From an uncultured virus (IMG/VR IMGVR_UViG_3300014680_000032) (Duplodnaviria; Heunggongvirae; Uroviricota; Caudoviricetes): a stretch of 20,000 bases of DNA. The stretch is taken from IMG/VR virus record IMGVR_UViG_3300014680_000032. The stretch is one strand, 5' to 3'. The number at the start of each line of letters is the position of its first letter. The first letter of the stretch is position 1. Shown piece by piece: positions 4,706 to 18,676 of the stretch. The notes below the pieces were generated by a model. That model was not told where the DNA came from. It ran no database searches and saw only the letters and a list, made by a program, of their open reading frames with translations. A program made the position numbers and the translations under genes.

Positions 4706-6658
4706 GTGAGTGTTAAATCAATTTTCATTCAAACACACGCACCACATCAAAGCCGATTAGTACATGGTTTTGACTCCATGGTGAATAGTGGTGCTTGTTC
4801 AATTGGGTTTATTAAGGGTGATTACCGTCAAATTAATGCTTTAGTCACTGAAGATTACACTGAAAATGATTTCTGGCGTGTTGTAAATTTAAAAGGTAAA
4901 AAGGGTGGGATAGATGCGTTTGATTCTGTTGCGGTATTAGGCGCTATCGATGACCAGCATGCAGCTGATTTAGCGATACTGCAATTTGGCCGAATGTTTG
5001 ATGCTTGTGTTACAGATGTTATTGAAACAAATCAATTTGGACTTAAGCGCCATTTATCTTCACAACAATTTAATTTGACGGGTGCAAAACCGATTCAAAG
5101 ATGGCAACTAGAACAATTACAAAATGTTGTCGCAGCTGAAAAACCTGAATGGGATGGAATCAATTTAATTTCTCATGAGGGTGATATTTCTAAGTTGTTT
5201 TTAGATATGCAACGAAATGATGATCACAGCCAATTATTAAGTAAATTTGATGGGTTACCTACGCTTTTATCTAGTCTAGGCGTCGAAGAAGCGCATTATG
5301 ACTCTATTATCGTTGATTACCAGCATTTAGAGCAGCTGTCTGCAATTTTGCATCACTCTATGGATCAGTTTTCAAAAACTGGCGTCAAAATCGTTAACGT
5401 TACGGAAAGTAAGCCCTTTAAGCATAAAAAAGTCCTTCAAATTGCCCTTACTTATGATTTTGATGACGGCCAAAACTTCACAATCCTTTTTCATAAGCCA
5501 GATCGATTATCAAAAAAAATTAGTCCAGCAGATTCATTAATTTCATGGAAGATTTTAATGAACAATCGGGATATTACTGCTGCAATCCAGCCTAATCAGG
5601 GAGAAGGAATTTCAATTCCAGTTCTCGCTGGTCGAATTATGAAGTTAATTAACCAAAATAGTAATCGTTTTAAGCGGTTACAATCTAAGAAAGCAGAAAA
5701 GGCCAAGGCTTTAGCAGATGCTGAACTACGCCTCGAGCAAAAACAAAGTCAATTAAATTCTTTAAGTGCAGAAATTTCCAATTTATTAAACGAATTGGAT
5801 CAGTTGCAAAATACATTGTTAACCAAGCAATCTGAGGAAAATGAAGGAATCATTAAAGAGAATAGTCTTGATAATGAGTTACCAGATAGTATTTCTGATG
5901 AAGAAGCCGAACGTTTAAAAGCCGATTTAAAGCGTTTAAATGCTGATCCTGAATGGGCAGGTGAAGATGGTTTACGTTACCAAGCATTCTTTGAACGTAT
6001 CAATAAGGCTCTAGAGGGGGACTCTGATGCGGTAGTTTGGGCTCGTGAATGGATTTCTGAACTAGATGACCAGGCTTTGGCTCAACAGCAAGCAGAATTA
6101 GAAGCAAAAAAACTTATTGATGCCGAAAATGAAGCTAAACAAAAAAGAGATGAAGAAGTTTTAGCAGCACGTGCAGCTGGTAAAGCTGAAAACAAAATGA
6201 TGCAAGCATGGTTAGACACTTTGGAAAAGCCTGAAGATACTAACAACATAGACTTTATGGCTTGGGTTTCAGATCGCCGTGGTGAATTCTTAAAAAACTG
6301 GAATGGGGCCGAAGGTTCACCAGAATATTTAACAGCATTTTATGAATATTCAAGAGCATGGGCAGATGAACATTTAGCGGATCGCCTCAGTAATAAAGAG
6401 CCAGCCCAAAATTCAGATAATGATGAATCTAAAGAACTAAATGCTCCGACAGAAGTTGAAGATCTTCAGCCTAGTACGACAAATGATGAAGGTAATCAAC
6501 TTTACCGTTCAGTAATTGAAGGGCAGGTTAAAGTTAATCTTGAGTTATTAGAGCAAATTCGAGATGAAGCAGAAAAAGACTTAAATGATCCACTTCTTAT
6601 TCCAGCGGTGACAGAACTCTTGAATCAAGTGCAAAAAATGGAAGCGGAGAATATCTAA
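4706..6658 (+). CDS. darA: Defence-against-restriction DarA-like protein
   Basis: GTG start with GAGGA SD. FDDGQNFTILFHKPD...LISWKILMNNRDITAAIQPNQGE...LAGRIMKLINQNSNRF matches the DarA N-terminal domain. A coiled coil and acidic helical regions follow. Confidence 0.75.
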   Translation: MSVKSIFIQTHAPHQSRLVHGFDSMVNSGACSIGFIKGDYRQINALVTEDYTENDFWRVVNLKGKKGGIDAFDSVAVLGAIDDQHAADLAILQFGRMFDACVTDVIETNQFGLKRHLSSQQFNLTGAKPIQRWQLEQLQNVVAAEKPEWDGINLISHEGDISKLFLDMQRNDDHSQLLSKFDGLPTLLSSLGVEEAHYDSIIVDYQHLEQLSAILHHSMDQFSKTGVKIVNVTESKPFKHKKVLQIALTYDFDDGQNFTILFHKPDRLSKKISPADSLISWKILMNNRDITAAIQPNQGEGISIPVLAGRIMKLINQNSNRFKRLQSKKAEKAKALADAELRLEQKQSQLNSLSAEISNLLNELDQLQNTLLTKQSEENEGIIKENSLDNELPDSISDEEAERLKADLKRLNADPEWAGEDGLRYQAFFERINKALEGDSDAVVWAREWISELDDQALAQQQAELEAKKLIDAENEAKQKRDEEVLAARAAGKAENKMMQAWLDTLEKPEDTNNIDFMAWVSDRRGEFLKNWNGAEGSPEYLTAFYEYSRAWADEHLADRLSNKEPAQNSDNDESKELNAPTEVEDLQPSTTNDEGNQLYRSVIEGQVKVNLELLEQIRDEAEKDLNDPLLIPAVTELLNQVQKMEAENI

Positions 6659-8169
6659 TGACAACTTTAAATCTAATTTCTATTCAAGATATTGCTAAAA
6701 ATCCATTAGTTGTAATTGATCAAATGATTAGTTTCTTTAAACCTAAACAGCCCTTTACTGGGCTATTGAAGGGTAGAACTAATAATGTGAAAACAGCCAA
6801 AGGACAAAAGATTTCTACTGTATTCGCTTTAGTTGATATTAATCAAGTAATTGCATCTCATACAGCAACTGGTGCGGAAAACCCTAATTATCCGCAAGAA
6901 TTGCAGCCACGAGATCGTAGTCGTGAATCCTCACAAGCATGGGTACAGAAAACTGCTAATGATTTAGACCCAGAAAGCCTAGGCCGCTCAGGTCGGGCAG
7001 ACACGGGAGCACCGATAACTGGTGATGATTTAGTTGTTGAATCAGGAAATGGCCGAACAATGGCAATCAAGCTTGCCTATGAGCGCGGTACCGCAGATGA
7101 GTATAAACAATGGTTGATTGATGAAGCTGATTACTTTGGCTTTAGCAGTGAGCAGGTCCAAGCAATAGCTCAACCAATCTTGATACGTATTCGTACAACT
7201 GAGATTGATAGAGCTCAATTTGCCATAGATGCTAACCAAGATGATAAGTTGTCTTTTACAGCAACTGAACGTGCTAAAGCTGATGCTAAACGTTTAGATG
7301 AGAATTTACTGGCTCTTTTTAACCCGAGTGAAGATGGCGATTTATTAGCAGTAAGTAATCAAAAGTTTATTCAAGGTTTTTTAAGTAAATTAGGTGATAC
7401 AGAAGCTGCCCAGTACACAACGAAAGATAAAAAACCAACACAAGCACTGATAAACAGAATCAAGGCCGCAATTTTTAGTAAAGCGTACAATGATGATCGT
7501 CTGCTAGAAATGATGGCTGATCATACAAAACCAGATCTTCAAAATATGCTTAATGCGCTTGGTGTTGCTGCGCCTAAATTTATTGAAGCGCAAGCTATAA
7601 GTCGTGGAAATGTTCAAGATATATCAGATCAAATCGTTGATGGAATGGAGCAAGCCATTGATCAACGTGTTGCTAATGCAATTATTGATGCAGCAAATAC
7701 CATTTTATCTGCAAAGCAAAATGATCAAGATATTGTTGAGTTTGTAAAGCAGCAAGGGCTTTTTGAGGATCTAGGAGAAGGTGTTGCTGAGCTCGCCGTA
7801 TTTCTCGCCAAGAATAGCCGCAGTTCAAAAAAAATGAGTATGTTATTTAAAGCATTAGCTGAATTTGCAGAGAAACAGGCTTTAGATAGTAGTAATGTAG
7901 GCTTGTTTGGTGAACCTGAACCAGTAAGTGTAAAAGATGCTATCCAATATGCACAACAAGTGCTTGGTGATGATTTCATTAGTGTGCAAATGTACGATTC
8001 CTTGGTTGATTCCAGCAGTTCAAGTAAACCTAAAATAATTCGATTAACGAAAGAGGGAGCTGAACGTTTTCACAGTGCTTTGAAAGTTAAAATTGATCAA
8101 AGTAATGACAAGGAAAATCAAGAAGGGAACAAAATTAATGACATTCTTTTTGAAGAATTAGATGTTTAG
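6658..8169 (+). CDS. ddrB: DdrB-like ParB-superfamily domain protein
   Basis: YPQELQPRDRSR...LDPESLG...GAPI...VVESGNGRTMAI is the ddrB-ParB signature. Coupled to darA by TAATG. Confidence 0.75.
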   Translation: MTTLNLISIQDIAKNPLVVIDQMISFFKPKQPFTGLLKGRTNNVKTAKGQKISTVFALVDINQVIASHTATGAENPNYPQELQPRDRSRESSQAWVQKTANDLDPESLGRSGRADTGAPITGDDLVVESGNGRTMAIKLAYERGTADEYKQWLIDEADYFGFSSEQVQAIAQPILIRIRTTEIDRAQFAIDANQDDKLSFTATERAKADAKRLDENLLALFNPSEDGDLLAVSNQKFIQGFLSKLGDTEAAQYTTKDKKPTQALINRIKAAIFSKAYNDDRLLEMMADHTKPDLQNMLNALGVAAPKFIEAQAISRGNVQDISDQIVDGMEQAIDQRVANAIIDAANTILSAKQNDQDIVEFVKQQGLFEDLGEGVAELAVFLAKNSRSSKKMSMLFKALAEFAEKQALDSSNVGLFGEPEPVSVKDAIQYAQQVLGDDFISVQMYDSLVDSSSSSKPKIIRLTKEGAERFHSALKVKIDQSNDKENQEGNKINDILFEELDV

Positions 8170-8172
8170 ATC

Positions 8173-8237
8173 TGGAACCTACTAAAAATTAGATACTTAC
8201 GATCATTCAACATAGGAATGTAAAGTTCCTATGTTGA
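8173..8237 (+). promoter_or_regulatory. Putative late promoter TGGAAC-N30-AACAT with 12-bp hairpin
   Basis: TGGAAC 8173-8178, AACAT 8209-8213. Perfect IR TCAACATAGGAA (8207-8218) / TTCCTATGTTGA (8226-8237), running into the GAGGG SD. Confidence 0.7.
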
Positions 8238-8244
8238 GGGATAT

Positions 8245-11200
8245 ATGTCCATCTTAAAGCTCAAACCAATCACTAAAGACACAGTATTGGTTGCGATTTA
8301 TTACATGATTGATTTCATGCATTATCAGAGCAATATTGCTCGATTTTTCCTTCTTATAATCCATAAGCAAATAGAACTTAACTTGTCTGTAGCAAAGCAA
8401 GCTTTAGCTTTTGCCCGTCAAGAAAGTGACTTTCCAAAATTGGATGAAGTTATTGAAGTCTTATATAACGAGGCTATCAAAAACATTGATGAATCAGTTA
8501 TCCAACACCTTAATAACAGTTCCAGAAATGTTATTGAACAGCTAGAGACTATTGTCAGTCTTTTTGCTTGCGATAAAGAGCTGAAGCCATACACCACTAA
8601 AAAGAATAAAACACTACAGGTTATTGGTCTTAAAGGCATCAAATTAACCAAAGCTAAAGAGTTTGACCCCTATGCCTTTTATTATCAGGGTGAAATTCTT
8701 GTACGCTCAAAACATCTTAAAGCTATTCCAGACTCTCTTCTTTCTGAAGATCAGCAACTTGTAAAAGGATTATTCTTACATGTATCAAATACCAATTCAG
8801 ATGTGGAATCAGTTGGCGAATTTCGTCTCAGATCCAGAGGACCAATTGTTTCTACAACTGGATCAGGAAAAGATGAACTTGAGGCTTCAGAAGCAGTCAG
8901 AAATGATGGAGAAGTTGGGGTACTCAGAGACAGTAATTCTGGCTTACCAAAAAGTGATGATGCAAGTTTACTTGGCGGCCGAAATCCTAGAAATGAATCT
9001 TCAAATGGAGATAGTGGAACCAGTGCTAACCGGATTAACAGCAGCGGAAGCAGTGAACTATCTGGTAAGAGATCATCTCTTAAACGAGCAAGAGATCGAT
9101 CAATTATACAATCTGCTAAATCAGTTAGAGCTGCCATAGATGAAAAGCTAGATGCTCAATTAAAAGCAGATAAGGTAGAAACTATATGGAGTGATGCTTC
9201 AAATATTGACGAAGCTTTGCCATATCTACAATCTGCACAGCGTGGTGATGTTTTTAAGACTGAAAAGCGCTTAATAGAGGAAAATCAGAAAGGTATTCTT
9301 TTTACTAATGGCACAGGTACTGGAAAAACCTTTACTGGTCTGGGTGTAGCAAAACGGTTTATCAATGCTGGCCTTAAGAATATTTTAATTGTTACTCTAA
9401 ACGATAAAATTGCTAATGACTTTGTCAAAAGCTCAAGCCCTTTAAATATCAAGGCTTACAAATTAAAAAGTATTAAAGAAAATGGCGGTGAGGATCACTC
9501 AGTCGTGGTCACAACCTTTGCTAATTTTGGTCAAAATAAAAGTTTGGTTCACAAACATTGGGATCTGATTTTAATTGATGAGGCCCATACTCTATCGCAA
9601 TCATCCGATGGTAAAGCAACTGCAGCATTAAACAAACTACGAGCATTAACCGGGCATTTGCATGGTTTTAGTGAGTGGTTTGAAGATAAGTTTGCTGAGC
9701 AGATGCCAATTGAAGAATTTGATGAAAATGGTAAAGAAACAGAACAATATCTAAGCGCTTATAACAAAATGCAGGTCCTTCGAAATGAACAACGAAAGAT
9801 CTGGAATTTGAATTGGAAACACCAGAAAAGTAAGGTCAAAGTTGTTTTCTTATCTGCTACGCCATTTAGTTATCACTTTTCACTTGATTGGGCGGAAGGC
9901 TATTTATTTGATTATATGTCTCCTTCAGTATCTGTTGATGACCAAGGTAATTTAGCTGAAGGCTTTAGTAAAGCTCGAGAGCACTTCTATATGGGAAATC
10001 TTGGATATCGAAAGCGATATGGTAAGTTGACGCGACCAGAAGCTAAGGTGGATACAGGTGTACTTGAAAGACAGTTCGCCGAAAATCTTAAAAACACTGG
10101 TGCTATGTCTGGGCGGGATTTAGAAGTAAATTTTGACTATGATCGTAAATTCATTCTAATTGGCTCTCGTGTTGGTGAACTTATTGATGAAGGTTTAACT
10201 TATCTTCGCAATGGTTATAAAGAAATAGAAGGGCACAAAACACGAACTTTTGAAGAATGGGCTGCTCAGACTGGTAAACCAACCACAGGCTGGGGGCGTC
10301 ATGCATCTATGCAAGAATATGATCGGTTATTCACTGGAAACCGTTTTAAAAACATATATGAAATTATTGCAAAACGCTTTGATTACTTAGCAAGACGCCG
10401 TTTGTTAGAAGCTATTAAAGCTGAAGCTTGTGTTGATATGGTGAAAAAGCACTTAGCATTAGGCCGTAAAGTAGTAATTTTTCATGATTATAACGAAGGC
10501 GGTGGTTTTGCACCTTTCTTGATTAGTAAGCTTGATATCGAAAAATATGAAAGCCCACTTAGAGAAGATATTGAGCTTGAATATAATACATTCAAAGAAA
10601 ATAGACCGGATCTAGTAAATCTCAATCTTGATTATGAATCACCTGTTGAAACTTTAAAGAATGCATTTCCTAATGCTCTTTTATTTAATGGTCGTCTTTC
10701 AAAGCAACAACGTGAAACTAATGTAGCGTTATTTAATACAGATGATAGCGGGCACGATATTCTCATTCTGCAGTCTGATGCTGGCTCTACTGGAATTAGC
10801 TTGCATGATACAACTGGTAAACACCAGCGAGTACTCATTAATATCGGTCAACCAACAAAGCCAGCCAAGTTGAGACAGACGGAAGGGCGTATCTATCGAA
10901 CCGGACAAGCATCAAATGCTATTCAGAGATACTTGACTACTGGTACTGCATGGGAACGGGCTGCATTTGCAGACACGATTGCTGGACGCGCAGAAACAGT
11001 AGATAACTTTGCAAAAGGTGCTGATGCTGTAGTAAGTATCAAAGAAGCGTTAATTCAGGCTTATGAAGAAGCTAAATATGAAGAGCCAAGTCTAAATGAT
11101 GGTATAGGCGGTAAAGCATATGATGAAGAAAATGCCCGTATTGCTAAGTTAACCCCATTTGATCAAGCACTAACATTCTACTATGCCAAAGGCAAACGTT

Positions 11201-12075
11201 CTGAAAGTCGTGATAACCGCGAAGGTAAGGAATGGTATGCAACGCCTGAACCTCTAGGATTCAAAATGATTGAATGGGCAGGGGTACACACTGGTGATTC
11301 TGTGCTTGAGCCTAGTGCTGGTGATGGAGCTATTGGTCGTTTTGTTCCGCAGGATGTAGAGTTGACAATGATTGAACCGACTGAGTCTTTAGCTAGTCGT
11401 GCTCAAATGGCAAATACAGGTGCTAAAGTAATTGTTGATACATTCGAATCTTTAGAATCTTTGAATAAGTACCATGCGATTGTGATGAATCCGCCATTTG
11501 GTCATGCTGGCACTTTGGCAATTCAACATATCAAGAAGGCTTTTGGTCATCTTTATGATGGTGGTCGGATTGTGGCCTTGGTACCACGTGGTTCGATGGA
11601 TTCTAAAGTGGACGAATTTATTGATAGTACACCTGGTGCAATTCTGACAGCTGAAATCTGGTTGCCTCAATCGACCTTTAAAAATGCTGGTACCGCCGTT
11701 TCAACTCGTATTATCATTATTGAAAAACATGCAGACTCTAATGCTGTTCCAGCAACACGAGAATTAGACTTTACGCACCTTACAAGTGTAGAGGATCTAT
11801 TTTCAGAAATTCGCGATATCGCAATGCCACCTAGGAAACTACGCATTGACGAGCAGCTAGCTAAGTATGAACTTTATGTTAGAACTGAACGTAGCAAGTA
11901 CGTTTTCAATGGCGATGGCGTTGATAAACCTCAGATCAAGAATATCATGCTGAAATTCTGGGGTTCAGAAGTAAATGAGTTTGATGAGATTGTTATGCCA
12001 TATAACAAATCTGCTGAAATCATTAAGAAGATTGATGAGTTTGAGCAAGAGAATAATATTAATCTAGCTGCTTAA
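8245..12075 (+). CDS. SF2 helicase (strawberry-notch-like) fused to C-terminal N6-adenine DNA methyltransferase; DarB-like polyvalent protein
   Basis: Helicase motifs: GTGTGKT (I), LILIDEAH (II), SATP (III), GSTGISLHD (V), QTEGRIYR (VI). MTase motifs: YATPE, VLEPSAGDG (SAM binding), MNPPF (catalytic). Confidence 0.85.
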   Translation: MSILKLKPITKDTVLVAIYYMIDFMHYQSNIARFFLLIIHKQIELNLSVAKQALAFARQESDFPKLDEVIEVLYNEAIKNIDESVIQHLNNSSRNVIEQLETIVSLFACDKELKPYTTKKNKTLQVIGLKGIKLTKAKEFDPYAFYYQGEILVRSKHLKAIPDSLLSEDQQLVKGLFLHVSNTNSDVESVGEFRLRSRGPIVSTTGSGKDELEASEAVRNDGEVGVLRDSNSGLPKSDDASLLGGRNPRNESSNGDSGTSANRINSSGSSELSGKRSSLKRARDRSIIQSAKSVRAAIDEKLDAQLKADKVETIWSDASNIDEALPYLQSAQRGDVFKTEKRLIEENQKGILFTNGTGTGKTFTGLGVAKRFINAGLKNILIVTLNDKIANDFVKSSSPLNIKAYKLKSIKENGGEDHSVVVTTFANFGQNKSLVHKHWDLILIDEAHTLSQSSDGKATAALNKLRALTGHLHGFSEWFEDKFAEQMPIEEFDENGKETEQYLSAYNKMQVLRNEQRKIWNLNWKHQKSKVKVVFLSATPFSYHFSLDWAEGYLFDYMSPSVSVDDQGNLAEGFSKAREHFYMGNLGYRKRYGKLTRPEAKVDTGVLERQFAENLKNTGAMSGRDLEVNFDYDRKFILIGSRVGELIDEGLTYLRNGYKEIEGHKTRTFEEWAAQTGKPTTGWGRHASMQEYDRLFTGNRFKNIYEIIAKRFDYLARRRLLEAIKAEACVDMVKKHLALGRKVVIFHDYNEGGGFAPFLISKLDIEKYESPLREDIELEYNTFKENRPDLVNLNLDYESPVETLKNAFPNALLFNGRLSKQQRETNVALFNTDDSGHDILILQSDAGSTGISLHDTTGKHQRVLINIGQPTKPAKLRQTEGRIYRTGQASNAIQRYLTTGTAWERAAFADTIAGRAETVDNFAKGADAVVSIKEALIQAYEEAKYEEPSLNDGIGGKAYDEENARIAKLTPFDQALTFYYAKGKRSESRDNREGKEWYATPEPLGFKMIEWAGVHTGDSVLEPSAGDGAIGRFVPQDVELTMIEPTESLASRAQMANTGAKVIVDTFESLESLNKYHAIVMNPPFGHAGTLAIQHIKKAFGHLYDGGRIVALVPRGSMDSKVDEFIDSTPGAILTAEIWLPQSTFKNAGTAVSTRIIIIEKHADSNAVPATRELDFTHLTSVEDLFSEIRDIAMPPRKLRIDEQLAKYELYVRTERSKYVFNGDGVDKPQIKNIMLKFWGSEVNEFDEIVMPYNKSAEIIKKIDEFEQENNINLAA
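8780..9139 (+). CDS. Probable overprinted nested gene (+1 frame): acidic helical protein, 119 aa
   Basis: AAAGGA SD 10 nt before the ATG and a globular amphipathic composition. The host frame over the same span is S/G/R/N-rich low complexity. Confidence 0.6.
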   Translation: MYQIPIQMWNQLANFVSDPEDQLFLQLDQEKMNLRLQKQSEMMEKLGYSETVILAYQKVMMQVYLAAEILEMNLQMEIVEPVLTGLTAAEAVNYLVRDHLLNEQEIDQLYNLLNQLELP

Positions 12076-15270: not shown

Positions 15271-15549
15271 ATGTCTGATCATCAGGCAATTGAAGTCACT
15301 GTCACAACTTTTGCTAATAAAACTACTTTCTGGAGTGGTTTAGCAAGTGCTTTTGGTTCTTTAACTTCAATTAATTGGTTGAGCTATACAGGTGCAATTG
15401 TGGCAGTTGTGGGCCTATTCATAAGTTTCATTTTTCAGTGGAGACGTGACCGCAGAGAACGTAAAGAAAGTGAATTACGTGAAAAAGAAAGCGAATTACG
15501 AATCAAAGCTTTAGAGCAAGATAATTTACGAAAGAGGAAAGATGAGTGA
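15271..15549 (+). CDS. Holin (HP1-like)
   Basis: 92 aa, a TM segment (GAIVAVVGLFISFIFQW) followed by a highly charged tail, directly upstream of the lysin. Confidence 0.75.
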   Translation: MSDHQAIEVTVTTFANKTTFWSGLASAFGSLTSINWLSYTGAIVAVVGLFISFIFQWRRDRRERKESELREKESELRIKALEQDNLRKRKDE

Positions 15550-16316
15550 AGTTAATTGAAAACAATGCTTGGCAGTATCTATCTGTTAAGTTACCCGCGG
15601 TAGGTGCATTCATCATGCTAATTTTATTGCCGGCACTACAATGGGGTGTTGATTATGAAGTTATTCCCGAAAAATATCACGCATTTGTTACTGGTACTTT
15701 AATGCTTGTTCTGTCATGGATTGGTAAGAAAATTTCTCAACCACGACTTAACGGCCCTCAATTAACAGGCCAGTTAGTAGGAATCAATACCTTAATGAAT
15801 ATTCCTACAACTACAAAGTTTGACGAATTAGCTTGGATGGCTGAAGCAAAAAAACACATTGGTCTGCAAGAAATACCAGGTAAACAGCACAATCCAACTA
15901 TTTTGAAATGGTTAAAGGAGCTTAAAGCTTGGTGGGCGGATGATGAAACAGCGTGGTGCGGTACTTTCGTTGCTCATTGCTTGAAATCAGCTGGAATTGC
16001 TTATCCTAAGCATTGGTACCGTGCATTGGATTATGTGAATTATGGTACCAAATTAGCTAAACCAGCTTACGGTTGTGTAGCTATTAAAACCCGTAAGGGA
16101 GGAGGCCATGTCTGTTTTGTTGTAGGACGTGATAAGTCTACTGGAAAACTTGTTTGCCTTGGTGGTAACCAATCCAATAGAGTGTGTTACGCGCTTTATA
16201 GTGATTCAGATTTCCAAGAGTTCCGATGGTATGGATGTACACCTCAGCCAGCAAGTAAACGTTATTCTTTACCGCAATTAAAGGGCGTAACAGCTACTAG
16301 GGTTTCTGAAGCCTAA
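15546..16316 (+). CDS. TIGR02594-family (NlpC/P60-CHAP-like) endolysin with N-terminal two-TM domain
   Basis: WMAEAKKHIGLQEIPG..HNPTIL..DETAWCGTFV (Cys), GGGHVCFVVG (His), LGGNQSN. Two hydrophobic helices lie in the first ~60 aa. The GTG start overlaps the holin stop (GTGA). Confidence 0.8.
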   Translation: MKLIENNAWQYLSVKLPAVGAFIMLILLPALQWGVDYEVIPEKYHAFVTGTLMLVLSWIGKKISQPRLNGPQLTGQLVGINTLMNIPTTTKFDELAWMAEAKKHIGLQEIPGKQHNPTILKWLKELKAWWADDETAWCGTFVAHCLKSAGIAYPKHWYRALDYVNYGTKLAKPAYGCVAIKTRKGGGHVCFVVGRDKSTGKLVCLGGNQSNRVCYALYSDSDFQEFRWYGCTPQPASKRYSLPQLKGVTATRVSEA

Positions 16317-16411
16317 TGAAGATACTATTACTGAGCTTTCTTTTATGTGGTTGTACGGCACATACAATTAATAGCAATGTAAATGTCACTATTTGCGTTA
16401 AAGCGATTTAA
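16316..16411 (+). CDS. Unannotated 31-aa lipoprotein MKILLLSFLLCGCTAHTINSNVNVTICVKAI
   Basis: TAATG coupling to the endolysin stop, signal peptide with LCGC lipobox, ends exactly at the terminator. A diverged homologue lies at 18750-18818. Confidence 0.7.
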   Translation: MKILLLSFLLCGCTAHTINSNVNVTICVKAI

Positions 16412-16440
16412 AAAAAGCCCTGAATTTTCAGGGCTTTTTT
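16411..16440. terminator. Bidirectional intrinsic terminator
   Basis: AAAAAAGCCCTGAA-tt-TTCAGGGCTTTTTT. Confidence 0.9.
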
Positions 16441-16447
16441 CTATGCT

Positions 16448-16951
16448 CTACTTTAAATTGATGCACTGTAATTGACCTAAATAGTCCTTATCTGAACTAA
16501 GTCTTTTTAGGTAAAGTGGTTGATAAGATAAAGCACGTCTTGTACTTTCTTGGATGCTAGGCGGAGCTTTCTTTAAATCAATAAGTGTTGAGTATTTCTG
16601 AAGAAACTTATTCATAATACAAAGCCCATCTACTGCTTCTAACGAAATTTTTTTATTGGCATTAATATCATTTTCGAAGCTATCTTTATCTGTTTCATAA
16701 TTACCAATTAATGAGTCAACTTTACGAACCGTATAGATAAGAAGCTCGTTAGTCATCTCAGATTTGGTATTAATGGTGTTATAGGCTGTTATATATAATC
16801 TTCGAGATTGAGCTATATCATCTCCAATGGCCATAGTTCTTGAAGCAAGCGCCTTACTAATTTCAGCTTCTCGTTCCTTTACGCTTGAATTATCTGCATG
16901 GCTACAACCAACCATAGCTAAGCTAATTAAGAAAATAACTAAATTTTTCAT
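16448..16951 (-). CDS. Lipoprotein, putative immunity protein
   Basis: MKNLVIFLISLAMVGC lipobox. Last gene of the PAAR cassette, directly downstream of the putative effector. Confidence 0.6.
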   Translation of the reverse strand: MKNLVIFLISLAMVGCSHADNSSVKEREAEISKALASRTMAIGDDIAQSRRLYITAYNTINTKSEMTNELLIYTVRKVDSLIGNYETDKDSFENDINANKKISLEAVDGLCIMNKFLQKYSTLIDLKKAPPSIQESTRRALSYQPLYLKRLSSDKDYLGQLQCINLK

Positions 16952-16957
16952 AAAATA

Positions 16958-17668
16958 TTACCAATTTTTCGAGTTAAGTATTTCATTTTCTTCAGAAGTT
17001 GGTACTTGATAGCCATATTCGGTTCTGCAGAGTTCGTATGCCTGTCTATTCCACTTTTTCTTAAAAATCATTTGATATAATCTGTGCCCTATCATTATAG
17101 GACCTCTATTGTTTCGGTTATTTGTTGCCAAAGCAGTGTATCTGCCTTGATCAAAAATTCCATATCCTGCTGGGGTCAATTCAATAATATCTTCTAAGTT
17201 CTTATAGTGAGCAGCTACCCTGATTTTGAAGCTATCTTTCAAAAGCTCTGTGGCAGCAGTAAGAGCCTTATCAGTTGCAATTCTATATAAGTAGGTAGCA
17301 AACCTTAGATACATCATTGTATGAAAATACTCAGTATAAATTAGGCCAGGAGTACCTTTTTCAATCTCTCTTAAATCAAATTCCATTCCAAACCGCAAAG
17401 CCATATCGTATTCAAAAGGCTGTCTATTTTTAATATGGTCCCAAAGATGTTGAGGAATACAAAAGGTGTAAGGAACAATTTTCTTTACTTTAATTAAGTT
17501 TTCCCATCCACTACAAGCAGTTAAATAACCATCATCTGCCCTACAAAGATTGATAGTTTCTTTTAAATTTACTCGATCTGCTGCATCAGCATTTATAGGT
17601 GTTTTATCATAATTTGAATGAAATATTAAACGACCTTCGTTATTACTTACTTTGTCAGTGCTACCCAT
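16958..17668 (-). CDS. Hypothetical protein, putative PAAR-delivered effector
   Basis: 236 aa, no signal peptide, lies between a PAAR gene and a lipoprotein gene. No family recognised. Confidence 0.5.
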   Translation of the reverse strand: MGSTDKVSNNEGRLIFHSNYDKTPINADAADRVNLKETINLCRADDGYLTACSGWENLIKVKKIVPYTFCIPQHLWDHIKNRQPFEYDMALRFGMEFDLREIEKGTPGLIYTEYFHTMMYLRFATYLYRIATDKALTAATELLKDSFKIRVAAHYKNLEDIIELTPAGYGIFDQGRYTALATNNRNNRGPIMIGHRLYQMIFKKKWNRQAYELCRTEYGYQVPTSEENEILNSKNW

Positions 17669-17678
17669 AAAATGTTTC

Positions 17679-18230
17679 TCATAATGGATCTAATGGCTTA
17701 GATAAATCGACAGTTATTAGTTGTACAGATTCAGGAGTATGTTCACTTTCATAAATGGCGGTCATCCCGTTTTTATCTGTATAGCCCTGTACTAATAATT
17801 TTCCAGATTCTTTACTATGAATTTCATATAGCATTGCTGAAAGAGGTTGATCCGTATCGACATCAACCAACTTGAACTGAACTTTATGAATTTCGTTGGA
17901 CTTATCTTCTACTAAGCTATTCTGAACAGGAGCAGCTGAAGAAGCAGCTGAAGAATAAGGACTACCAGAGTCTCCAACCACATGAAACTGCTGAGGCATA
18001 ATAGTTGCCCCGCATGAAAGCTTATCACCTACGTAAGCAACTGGCTTACCATCCATAATTACATGATCGTGACTTTTAATAACGACAGACCAGCATTTAC
18101 ACTTTGGGCACATATGCCCATCACCAGCACGAACAAACAAATTTCCTTCTTGCGATGTTCGTGATTGAGTCGCAGGAACCACTCCACCATGATTAGTGGG
18201 GGCCATATTTATGGCAAAACTTTTGGCCAT
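17679..18230 (-). CDS. PAAR domain protein with C-terminal transthyretin-like extension
   Basis: TNHGG..RAGDGHMCPKC..DGKPVAYVGDKLSCGATI, then an S/A linker, then VQFKLVD..QPL..YEI..QGYTDKNGMT. Confidence 0.85.
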   Translation of the reverse strand: MAKSFAINMAPTNHGGVVPATQSRTSQEGNLFVRAGDGHMCPKCKCWSVVIKSHDHVIMDGKPVAYVGDKLSCGATIMPQQFHVVGDSGSPYSSAASSAAPVQNSLVEDKSNEIHKVQFKLVDVDTDQPLSAMLYEIHSKESGKLLVQGYTDKNGMTAIYESEHTPESVQLITVDLSKPLDPL

Positions 18231-18247
18231 GCTTCACTCCTTAAAGT

Positions 18248-18676
18248 TTATTCATGACTAAGAAAGCCTTCAGGAAGGGTTTGATCTTTGTATATCCTCA
18301 CTGCAAATAAACTCACAGGAGTATCAATAATCTCATCTCCATTTTCTAACCGGCTTCCCACTAAAGCAGCTGACACACCATTGATCTTACAGGCTTGACC
18401 TGCACCAGAAATAATTTTAGAAGTAGTGCCATCGGCATATATAGCTTCATCACCTACACAGGCAATAGCAATACCATTAGCTTTGTAATTGTCATTTCCA
18501 GCTCTAACTAAGCCACCATTTCTGGTTTTTGCACCGTTCACAGCAAGATAATAAACAGTATGTGGTTTATGCTGAAAATAAAGCTGTTCTGCTGCGATAG
18601 TCTGAGCAATATCTTCTTCAGATAACTTTTGCAATTGATCTAGAGGCAATTCACTTAAAAATTTGGGTGAAGTCAT
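18248..18676 (-). CDS. PAAR-like domain protein (lacking the usual Zn ligands)
   Basis: GAKTRNGG..IACVGDEAIYADG..SKIISGAG..AALVGSRLENGDEII. Confidence 0.75.
   Translation of the reverse strand: MTSPKFLSELPLDQLQKLSEEDIAQTIAAEQLYFQHKPHTVYYLAVNGAKTRNGGLVRAGNDNYKANGIAIACVGDEAIYADGTTSKIISGAGQACKINGVSAALVGSRLENGDEIIDTPVSLFAVRIYKDQTLPEGFLSHE

Follow-up and report, generated by a model that had tools for sequence, protein, structure and literature searches.

A 31-aa open reading frame (ORF) at the end of a phage lysis cassette is a real, conserved gene and the founder of a previously undescribed family of predicted lipopeptides, which number in the hundreds in Acinetobacter phages and prophages and are coupled to lysis genes. 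Intact copies are nearly absent from cassettes that carry spanins, suggesting that the product is likely a small, lipid-anchored breaker of the outer membrane; we put the probability that it takes part in breaching this membrane during lysis at about 0.7, judging from sequence comparisons. The founding copy lies in the window, by which we mean the whole 20,000-nucleotide stretch that was analysed, namely the end of a 78.5-kb record of an uncultured virus (IMGVR_UViG_3300014680_000032), a record that is possibly incomplete.

The missing outer-membrane step of these phages has been noted repeatedly. In its available portion, a survey of phages with Gram-negative hosts reports no spanins in 91/677, about 13% of those surveyed, and lists YMC-13-01-C62 among the spanin-less phages (Kongari et al., PMC6139136). 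Excerpts of the papers on ABMM1 (PMC10345192) and Piluca (PMC9022569) report no spanin, and the accessible text of the Brutus/Scipio paper states that none has been predicted in any Obolenskvirus, proposes an orphan membrane gene as spanin, and mentions possible extra ORFs, among which the lipopeptide ORF is not named there (PMC10888812). A review of Acinetobacter phages, in the part available, finds no spanins, proposes endolysin tails or disruptins instead, and calls for an alternative to spanins in the genus (PMC8878043). The gene described here is present but unannotated in ABMM1, Piluca, YMC-13-01-C62 and Brutus and is carried by Obolenskviruses; it is a specific candidate answer that spans temperate phages and therapy-relevant Obolenskviruses.

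Results

A predicted prelipoprotein gene ends the lysis cassette

In the window, the gene follows those for a holin and an endolysin, and its translation is MKILLLSFLLCGCTAHTINSNVNVTICVKAI*. Its ATG overlaps the stop codon of the endolysin by one base, and the lipobox, L10-C11-G12-C13, places the predicted lipidation site at Cys13, so that the coupling and the LCGC lipobox reported in the initial annotation are confirmed from the sequence. Gly-1 and Cys+1 are invariant across the family alignment, in part because the search patterns fix them; our lipoprotein calls use a regular expression and a hydropathy rule, and LPAM_1 was weakly matched by 2/58 members.

Table 1 Coordinates of features in the window.
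Feature	Position	Strand	Basis or remark
P1-like antirestriction-type block	4706-12075	+	DarA_N protein, ddrB-ParB protein, 1276-aa helicase-methyltransferase
92-aa holin	15271..15549	+	phrog_4237, E 4.5e-37
256-aa endolysin	15546..16316	+	N-terminal holin-like module and CHAP-like domain
Hydrophobic holin-like module opening the endolysin	15546-15755	+	phrog_1356, weak
Endolysin stop/lipopeptide start, TAATG	16314-16318	+	one base in common
31-aa prelipoprotein gene	16316..16411	+	founder of unannotated Acinetobacter phage family
Predicted type II signal peptide (aa 1-12) and lipobox L-C-G-C	16316..16354	+	sequence, family alignment
19-aa mature peptide	16352..16408	+	predicted; second Cys at +15
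Codon of Cys+15	16394-16396	+
Hairpin with A-run and U-run	16411..16440	.	13 bp, z = -5.0
Convergent cluster	16448-18676	-	two PAAR-domain genes, 236-aa unknown, 167-aa lipoprotein

The mature peptide is hydrophobic at +6, +10, +12, +14, +16 and +18/19. Of the alternation of hydrophobic residues with a second Cys that had been proposed, the stretch from +10 to +16 (and +18/19) and Cys+15 stand, but +8 is polar, and strict alternation is limited to that stretch; across the family, too, +6 is hydrophobic and +8 polar. AlphaFold2 modelled the C-terminal part of the precursor as a helix (pLDDT about 62; whole model mean pLDDT 62.8, pTM 0.23) and did not support a strand.

A hairpin starts at the final base of the lipopeptide stop codon and was equalled in stability by 0/200 shuffles; overlooked by a consensus terminator scan, it probably acts as an intrinsic terminator in both directions at the end of the lysis operon. 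No promoter of the lipopeptide gene's own was found by consensus scan. The cassette is present in 19 RNA-labelled public runs; two raw-read RNA runs had zero reads on it, and two contig sets cannot show transcription.

The initial observation that no Rz/Rz1-like pair is visible in the cassette is upheld: neither an i-/o-spanin pair nor a u-spanin was found there or elsewhere in the possibly incomplete 78.5-kb record. Beyond the window, spanin families matched none of 24 candidate ORFs, and two spanin pairs from Acinetobacter used as tblastn queries returned nothing. Apart from the lipopeptide, the credible lipoproteins in an all-frame scan of the record were two, of 273 and 167 aa, both lacking a C-terminal membrane segment. 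The record is close to the temperate phage vB_AbaM_ABMM1 (89% over the cassette), in which the endolysin orthologue is annotated 'putative lysin'. Modules similar to the one opening the endolysin occur as a free 86-87-aa gene (L266/L297) or fused to an amidase (L278/L296/L323) or to GH24 (L729), making holin-endolysin fusions recurrent.

The family is under purifying selection and confined to Acinetobacter and close kin in these searches

By tblastn, the window peptide matched 66 phage records, 64 of them named Acinetobacter, and the Obolenskvirus variant matched 120, of which 119 were Acinetobacter. Most of these records have no annotation at the site, the gene having been missed because its size falls below gene-calling cut-offs. 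Two pattern scans of IMG/VR gave estimated totals of about 470 and 200 stretches, with 2 chance matches among the 120 matches listed in the second scan. Among 240 copies there are 81 distinct mature peptides, 19-24 aa long in 239 copies and 16 aa in one, which fall into subfamily A (19 aa, ending C-V-K/R-A-L) and subfamily B (C-x-Q-C, 20-24 aa). The conserved mature features are Cys+1, Ala+3, Ile+6, a predicted amphipathic strand and Cys+15, the last kept in 79/81 distinct peptides (pattern-fixed in subfamily B). Position +2 is Thr, not Asp, in 77/81, and net charge ranges from -1 to +3, with 0 to +1 in 69/81.

The family is under purifying selection. In subfamily A (72 distinct genes, 12 codons outside the search pattern) pN/pS was 0.245 in frame vs 1.79 and 1.23 in the shifted frames, and entropy by codon position was 0.42, 0.43 and 1.31; in subfamily B pN/pS was 0.52 in frame vs 1.18 and 2.34 shifted, all ratios being uncorrected and from related sequences. 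Conservation, on which the initial annotation's reading depended, is borne out by the tblastn matches as well as by the ratio in subfamily A.

No family in Pfam, PHROG or NCBIfam covers the lipopeptide at a meaningful E-value, and the PDB holds no solved structure for it; the best weak PHROG matches of members have E 0.0069-0.014, and the window protein itself has none. An earlier description of the family was not found in the literature searched, which consisted of main texts from mostly openly accessible journals.

In these searches, the host range is Acinetobacter and close kin. With a loose pattern in GTDB, 54/54 Acinetobacter-titled matches were family members, while the 26 matches with other titles comprised 23 chance matches and 3 members in Acinetobacter-like DNA, which are probably misbinned. 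A family-level sample gave a match in 49/401 genomes; an order-level sample of 401 genomes added one weak match, to a longer lipoprotein, and no true member. A profile search of 1.84 billion representatives returned 20 matches, all sharing one short motif. The match in a human-gut phage record (H108) was rejected as chance, and a suspected chromosomal homologue proved to be remnants beside a umuDC-like module. In eight loci (L466-L468, L470, L475-L477, L485) this module separates the lysis genes from a lipopeptide remnant that has no signal; its boundary is identical in the prophages, which come from several species, and does not depend on which lysis genes precede it.

The mature part is conserved behind unrelated endolysins

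Among 122 IMG/VR matches listed, 78 have an upstream ORF of at least 100 aa within 450 nt, and 74 of these 78 ORFs are endolysins: 30 GH24, 29 GH108, 9 CHAP-like and 6 which we take to be GH19, the types being labelled by BLAST against annotated references. N-acetylmuramidase and amidase endolysins also precede the gene in GTDB loci, so that the mature part is conserved behind six unrelated endolysin types. The gap to the endolysin is mostly -4, -1 or +5 nt, and many of the 102 distinct signal peptides are overprinted on the endolysin 3' end. The repeated rebuilding of the signal, with the mature part held, suggests selection for export and lipidation.

In two lineages the gene lies far from the lysis genes. 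In the virulent Lokivirus IMEAB3 it ends the late operon, at a distance of 22 kb from the genes for holin and endolysin, and encodes the only credible lipoprotein of the whole genome. P2 has lysB/lysC between its endolysin and tail terminator genes; a P2-like prophage lacks lysB/lysC, its tail terminator gene coming immediately after the endolysin, and the lipopeptide gene, encoding the only credible lipoprotein in 20 kb, closes the late operon after gene D.

In phi5038-11551 (L014:1422-2096) the annotated endolysin continues in frame into the lipopeptide, as expected from a frame change, whether genuine or a sequencing error, close to the end of the endolysin. A Cys/His-rich gene of 98-107 aa (phrog_3362) is recurrently inserted right after the endolysin, ahead of either spanins or the lipopeptide (L047, L062, L292, L318, L614, L687, L690, L735).

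Intact lipopeptide genes and spanins are nearly mutually exclusive

Some Acinetobacter prophages do have spanins, matching phrog_1152, phrog_312/5777 and phrog_456; PHROGs confirmed 3/4 of our spanin query proteins, one o-spanin query having no family match. From IMG/VR we took 115 loci by their i-spanin (the best 80 of 100 plus all 35 confirmed loci), of which 102 had both partners and at least 150 nt downstream. None of these 102 held an intact lipopeptide gene, four held broken remnants, truncated or without a usable signal, and 98 had none. A second set of 160 loci was anchored on GH24 or GH108 endolysins (the best 80 each from 395 and 561 confirmed loci), with 0/160 matching two Acinetobacter i-spanin queries. 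Here an intact lipopeptide was present in 138 of the 159 loci with room downstream (80/80 for GH24 and 58/79 for GH108, best 80 each), leaving 21/79 GH108 loci without an intact copy nearby. Because loci with the lipopeptide supplied the endolysin queries and the hits were 92-100% identical, this comparison is redundant and biased, and the exclusion was therefore repeated genus-wide with Pfam anchors.

The genus-wide set comprised 100 loci from 151 Acinetobacter genomes, namely the top 30 per family and 40 hand-picked PF00959 loci (20 low-scoring SAR-type, 20 mid-rank); three with less than 300 nt downstream were left out and one was reassigned by eye to the spanin class. Intact lipopeptide genes were found in 0/33 spanin-bearing vs 15/64 spanin-less loci (Fisher p = 0.002, although the loci are not independent of one another); in 12 loci with spanins the endolysin was a non-SAR GH24 or GH108 enzyme. 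The remaining 49/64 spanin-less loci had no intact copy nearby (44 none, 5 scored broken, of which 3 are probably intact with unusual starts); many of the copyless loci are orphan lysozyme genes or Mu-like cassettes, and about a dozen look like ordinary holin-endolysin cassettes.

Outside both sets, one locus (L277) combines a spanin pair with an intact lipopeptide gene, which lies, together with the tail of an older endolysin, 305 nt past the spanins. In L329 and L433 the mature part is still intact downstream of spanins, but its signal is short, uncharged and of doubtful function. Recombination through the overlapping signal sequence might by itself account for the loss of the gene where spanins are present. 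The o-spanin signal at L277:2359-2649 resembles some lipopeptide signals (L310, L343), with a shared C-K-R-S-W-S start, a likeness that hints at recombination between both gene types.

Two families of two-component spanins are common in Acinetobacter prophages (L351-L465, L709-L728), mostly with SAR-type endolysins, which runs counter to the published impression of spanin-less Acinetobacter phages. Nor is the lipopeptide the sole substitute for spanins: Mu-like cassettes (L679-L682, L684, L694) and phage Petty have neither spanins nor lipopeptide near the endolysin, implying another outer-membrane solution. The whole Petty record (L262) holds no family member, and its announcement reports no lipoproteins (PMC3853044).

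Discussion

Lgt, LspA and Lnt process prelipoproteins that have a lipobox, and the Lol system delivers those lacking Asp at +2 to the outer membrane, although this sorting rule comes from E. coli and may not hold in Acinetobacter. On the standard pathway, the lipopeptide would be produced with the late genes, be processed and delivered accordingly, and build up in the inner leaflet of the outer membrane. Its acyl-anchored amphipathic strand (+9 to +18) may then self-associate, with disulfides through Cys+15 (CxxC in the second subfamily) probably cross-linking the peptides, and the accumulated oligomers would weaken the membrane enough for it to rupture after the holin and endolysin have done their work and the peptidoglycan is gone. 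Self-association and cross-linking are the least certain steps, being read from the anatomy of the peptide. We give such direct weakening an even chance. The bolder proposition, that a lipidated, disulfide-linked β-strand peptide of ~20 residues alone ruptures the outer membrane, is interchangeable with two-component spanins, and explains many spanin-less Acinetobacter phages, is tentative and falls slightly short of even odds.

Comparison with known systems helps to place the peptide. The u-spanins of the T1 gp11 type are likewise single lipoprotein genes in the lysis cassette and serve the outer-membrane step proposed for the lipopeptide, according to the available part of their survey (PMC6139136). 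At the sequence level the lipopeptide shares their N-terminal lipobox (LCGC), but it has no C-terminal transmembrane helix or periplasm-spanning domain, its hydrophobic runs being too short, and the T1 gp11 family did not match it. The lipopeptide, which the initial annotation described as much shorter than known u-spanins, should not be labelled a short u-spanin, because the helix is missing; with 19 residues and no membrane helix, it cannot form a periplasmic bridge of the spanin type. The two-component spanins of lambda (Rz/Rz1) and of Acinetobacter phages (pairs of phrog_1152 and of phrog_5777) share with it the slot after the endolysin, a lipid anchor and a conserved periplasmic Cys, but the lipopeptide has no i-spanin partner and nearly excludes them. 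The phiKT disruptin gp28 is also small, comes from a spanin-less phage and is too short for membrane bridging; in the available text it is described as 56 aa, net +7, predicted to be helical, and without signal or lipid (bioRxiv 10.1101/515445), whereas the family consists of predicted lipoproteins mostly of charge 0 to +1 and rich in β-branched residues. Judged by its predicted features, the lipopeptide belongs with neither the spanins nor the disruptins of phiKT type.

By analogy, the nearest functional counterpart would be the colicin lysis lipoprotein, likewise very small, encoded last in a late-induced operon and permeabilising the envelope, as far as the accessible text describes it (PF02402; PMC9517006), but plasmid-borne and, in ColE1, with a mature peptide of 28 aa lacking a second Cys. 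A six-residue likeness had prompted the idea of homology, which was rejected: PF02402 was matched by 0/58 members, hhalign gave a probability of 53% over signal and lipobox only, and the ColE1 lysis protein scored at background level against the family's mature part, with 16/47 background lipoproteins scoring as high over +2..+6. As for the earlier suggestion of a minimal outer-membrane-disrupting lipopeptide, the comparative evidence gives it strong indirect support, through the near-complete exclusion, the decay behind incoming spanins and the conservation behind six endolysin types.

The same role could be exerted indirectly, through a host outer-membrane protein such as phospholipase A, which colicin lysis lipoproteins activate according to the available text of PMC9517006, or by jamming an assembly machine through strand pairing. 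The tightly held mature sequence (Ala+3, His+4, Ile+6), the confinement to Moraxellaceae-type hosts in these searches and, as a lead only, the sixth-ranked entry of an ESM Atlas search, a colicin E1 lysis cluster (score 0.83, under the tool's threshold), fit such a host target; the background score of the ColE1 lysis protein, the absence of PF02402 matches and the presence of the gene in Piluca, recorded from an Alcaligenes host, speak against it, and we regard this route as unlikely. No more probable is a late lipoprotein that masks a receptor or envelope target without breaking membranes. Small outer-membrane lipoproteins for lytic conversion or superinfection exclusion are known from phages (T5 Llp, Cor), although these are larger, receptor-specific and not known to be tied to the absence of spanins. 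The gene does end the late operon even at a distance of 15-22 kb from the lysis genes, many cassettes without spanins have lost it or keep only a decayed copy, and L277 has both spanins and an intact copy, all of which masking would accommodate; it would not predict the exclusion (0/102, 0/33), the peptide has no promoter of its own that we found, and one receptor is unlikely to serve the myo-, sipho- and P2-like, temperate and virulent phages in which it is near-identical.

A shrunken o-spanin with an unrecognised inner-membrane partner, either a second small membrane protein or the hydrophobic module of the endolysin, appears very improbable. The Rz-like phrog_456 is weakly matched by 28/58 members (best E 0.014), but signal peptide and lipobox best explain these matches. 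Some lipopeptide signals do resemble that of the L277 o-spanin, spanins do use intermolecular disulfides in the available part of PMC6139136, and the available Brutus text offers its orphan membrane gene as a precedent (PMC10888812); yet no partner is constant, TRS1 and Vieuvirus-type cassettes have a single membrane gene, and the candidate partners match holin or unknown families rather than spanins and, by inspection, lack a periplasmic coiled coil. That the conserved feature is a DNA or RNA element marking the end of the prophage, with the ORF incidental, is scarcely credible: broken copies persist in several genomes and ribosome-binding sites are often weak, as such an element would allow, but variation is concentrated at third codon positions, pN/pS is low in frame and above 1 in shifted frames, and unrelated DNA repeatedly encodes an in-frame hydrophobic signal peptide.

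If a role in outer-membrane disruption is confirmed, the lipopeptide would be the smallest known lysis protein for this step. It would add a new route to those of spanins and disruptins and could guide the development of lipopeptides that permeabilise the outer membrane of A. baumannii. For annotators and phage engineers, the 100 bases past the endolysin deserve attention.

Beyond the lipopeptide gene, the window holds a P1-like block of antirestriction type and, converging on the cassette, a cluster that looks like a cargo effector-immunity module using the same terminator; ABMM1 has different genes in place of this cluster. Among the genus-wide loci, conserved orphan GH24 genes (L664, L666, L669, L670, L731, L733, L739) and pairs of holin and GH108 (L685, L696, L697, L705, L708) occupy fixed chromosomal sites without tail genes, and are possibly domesticated lysis genes of several Acinetobacter species.
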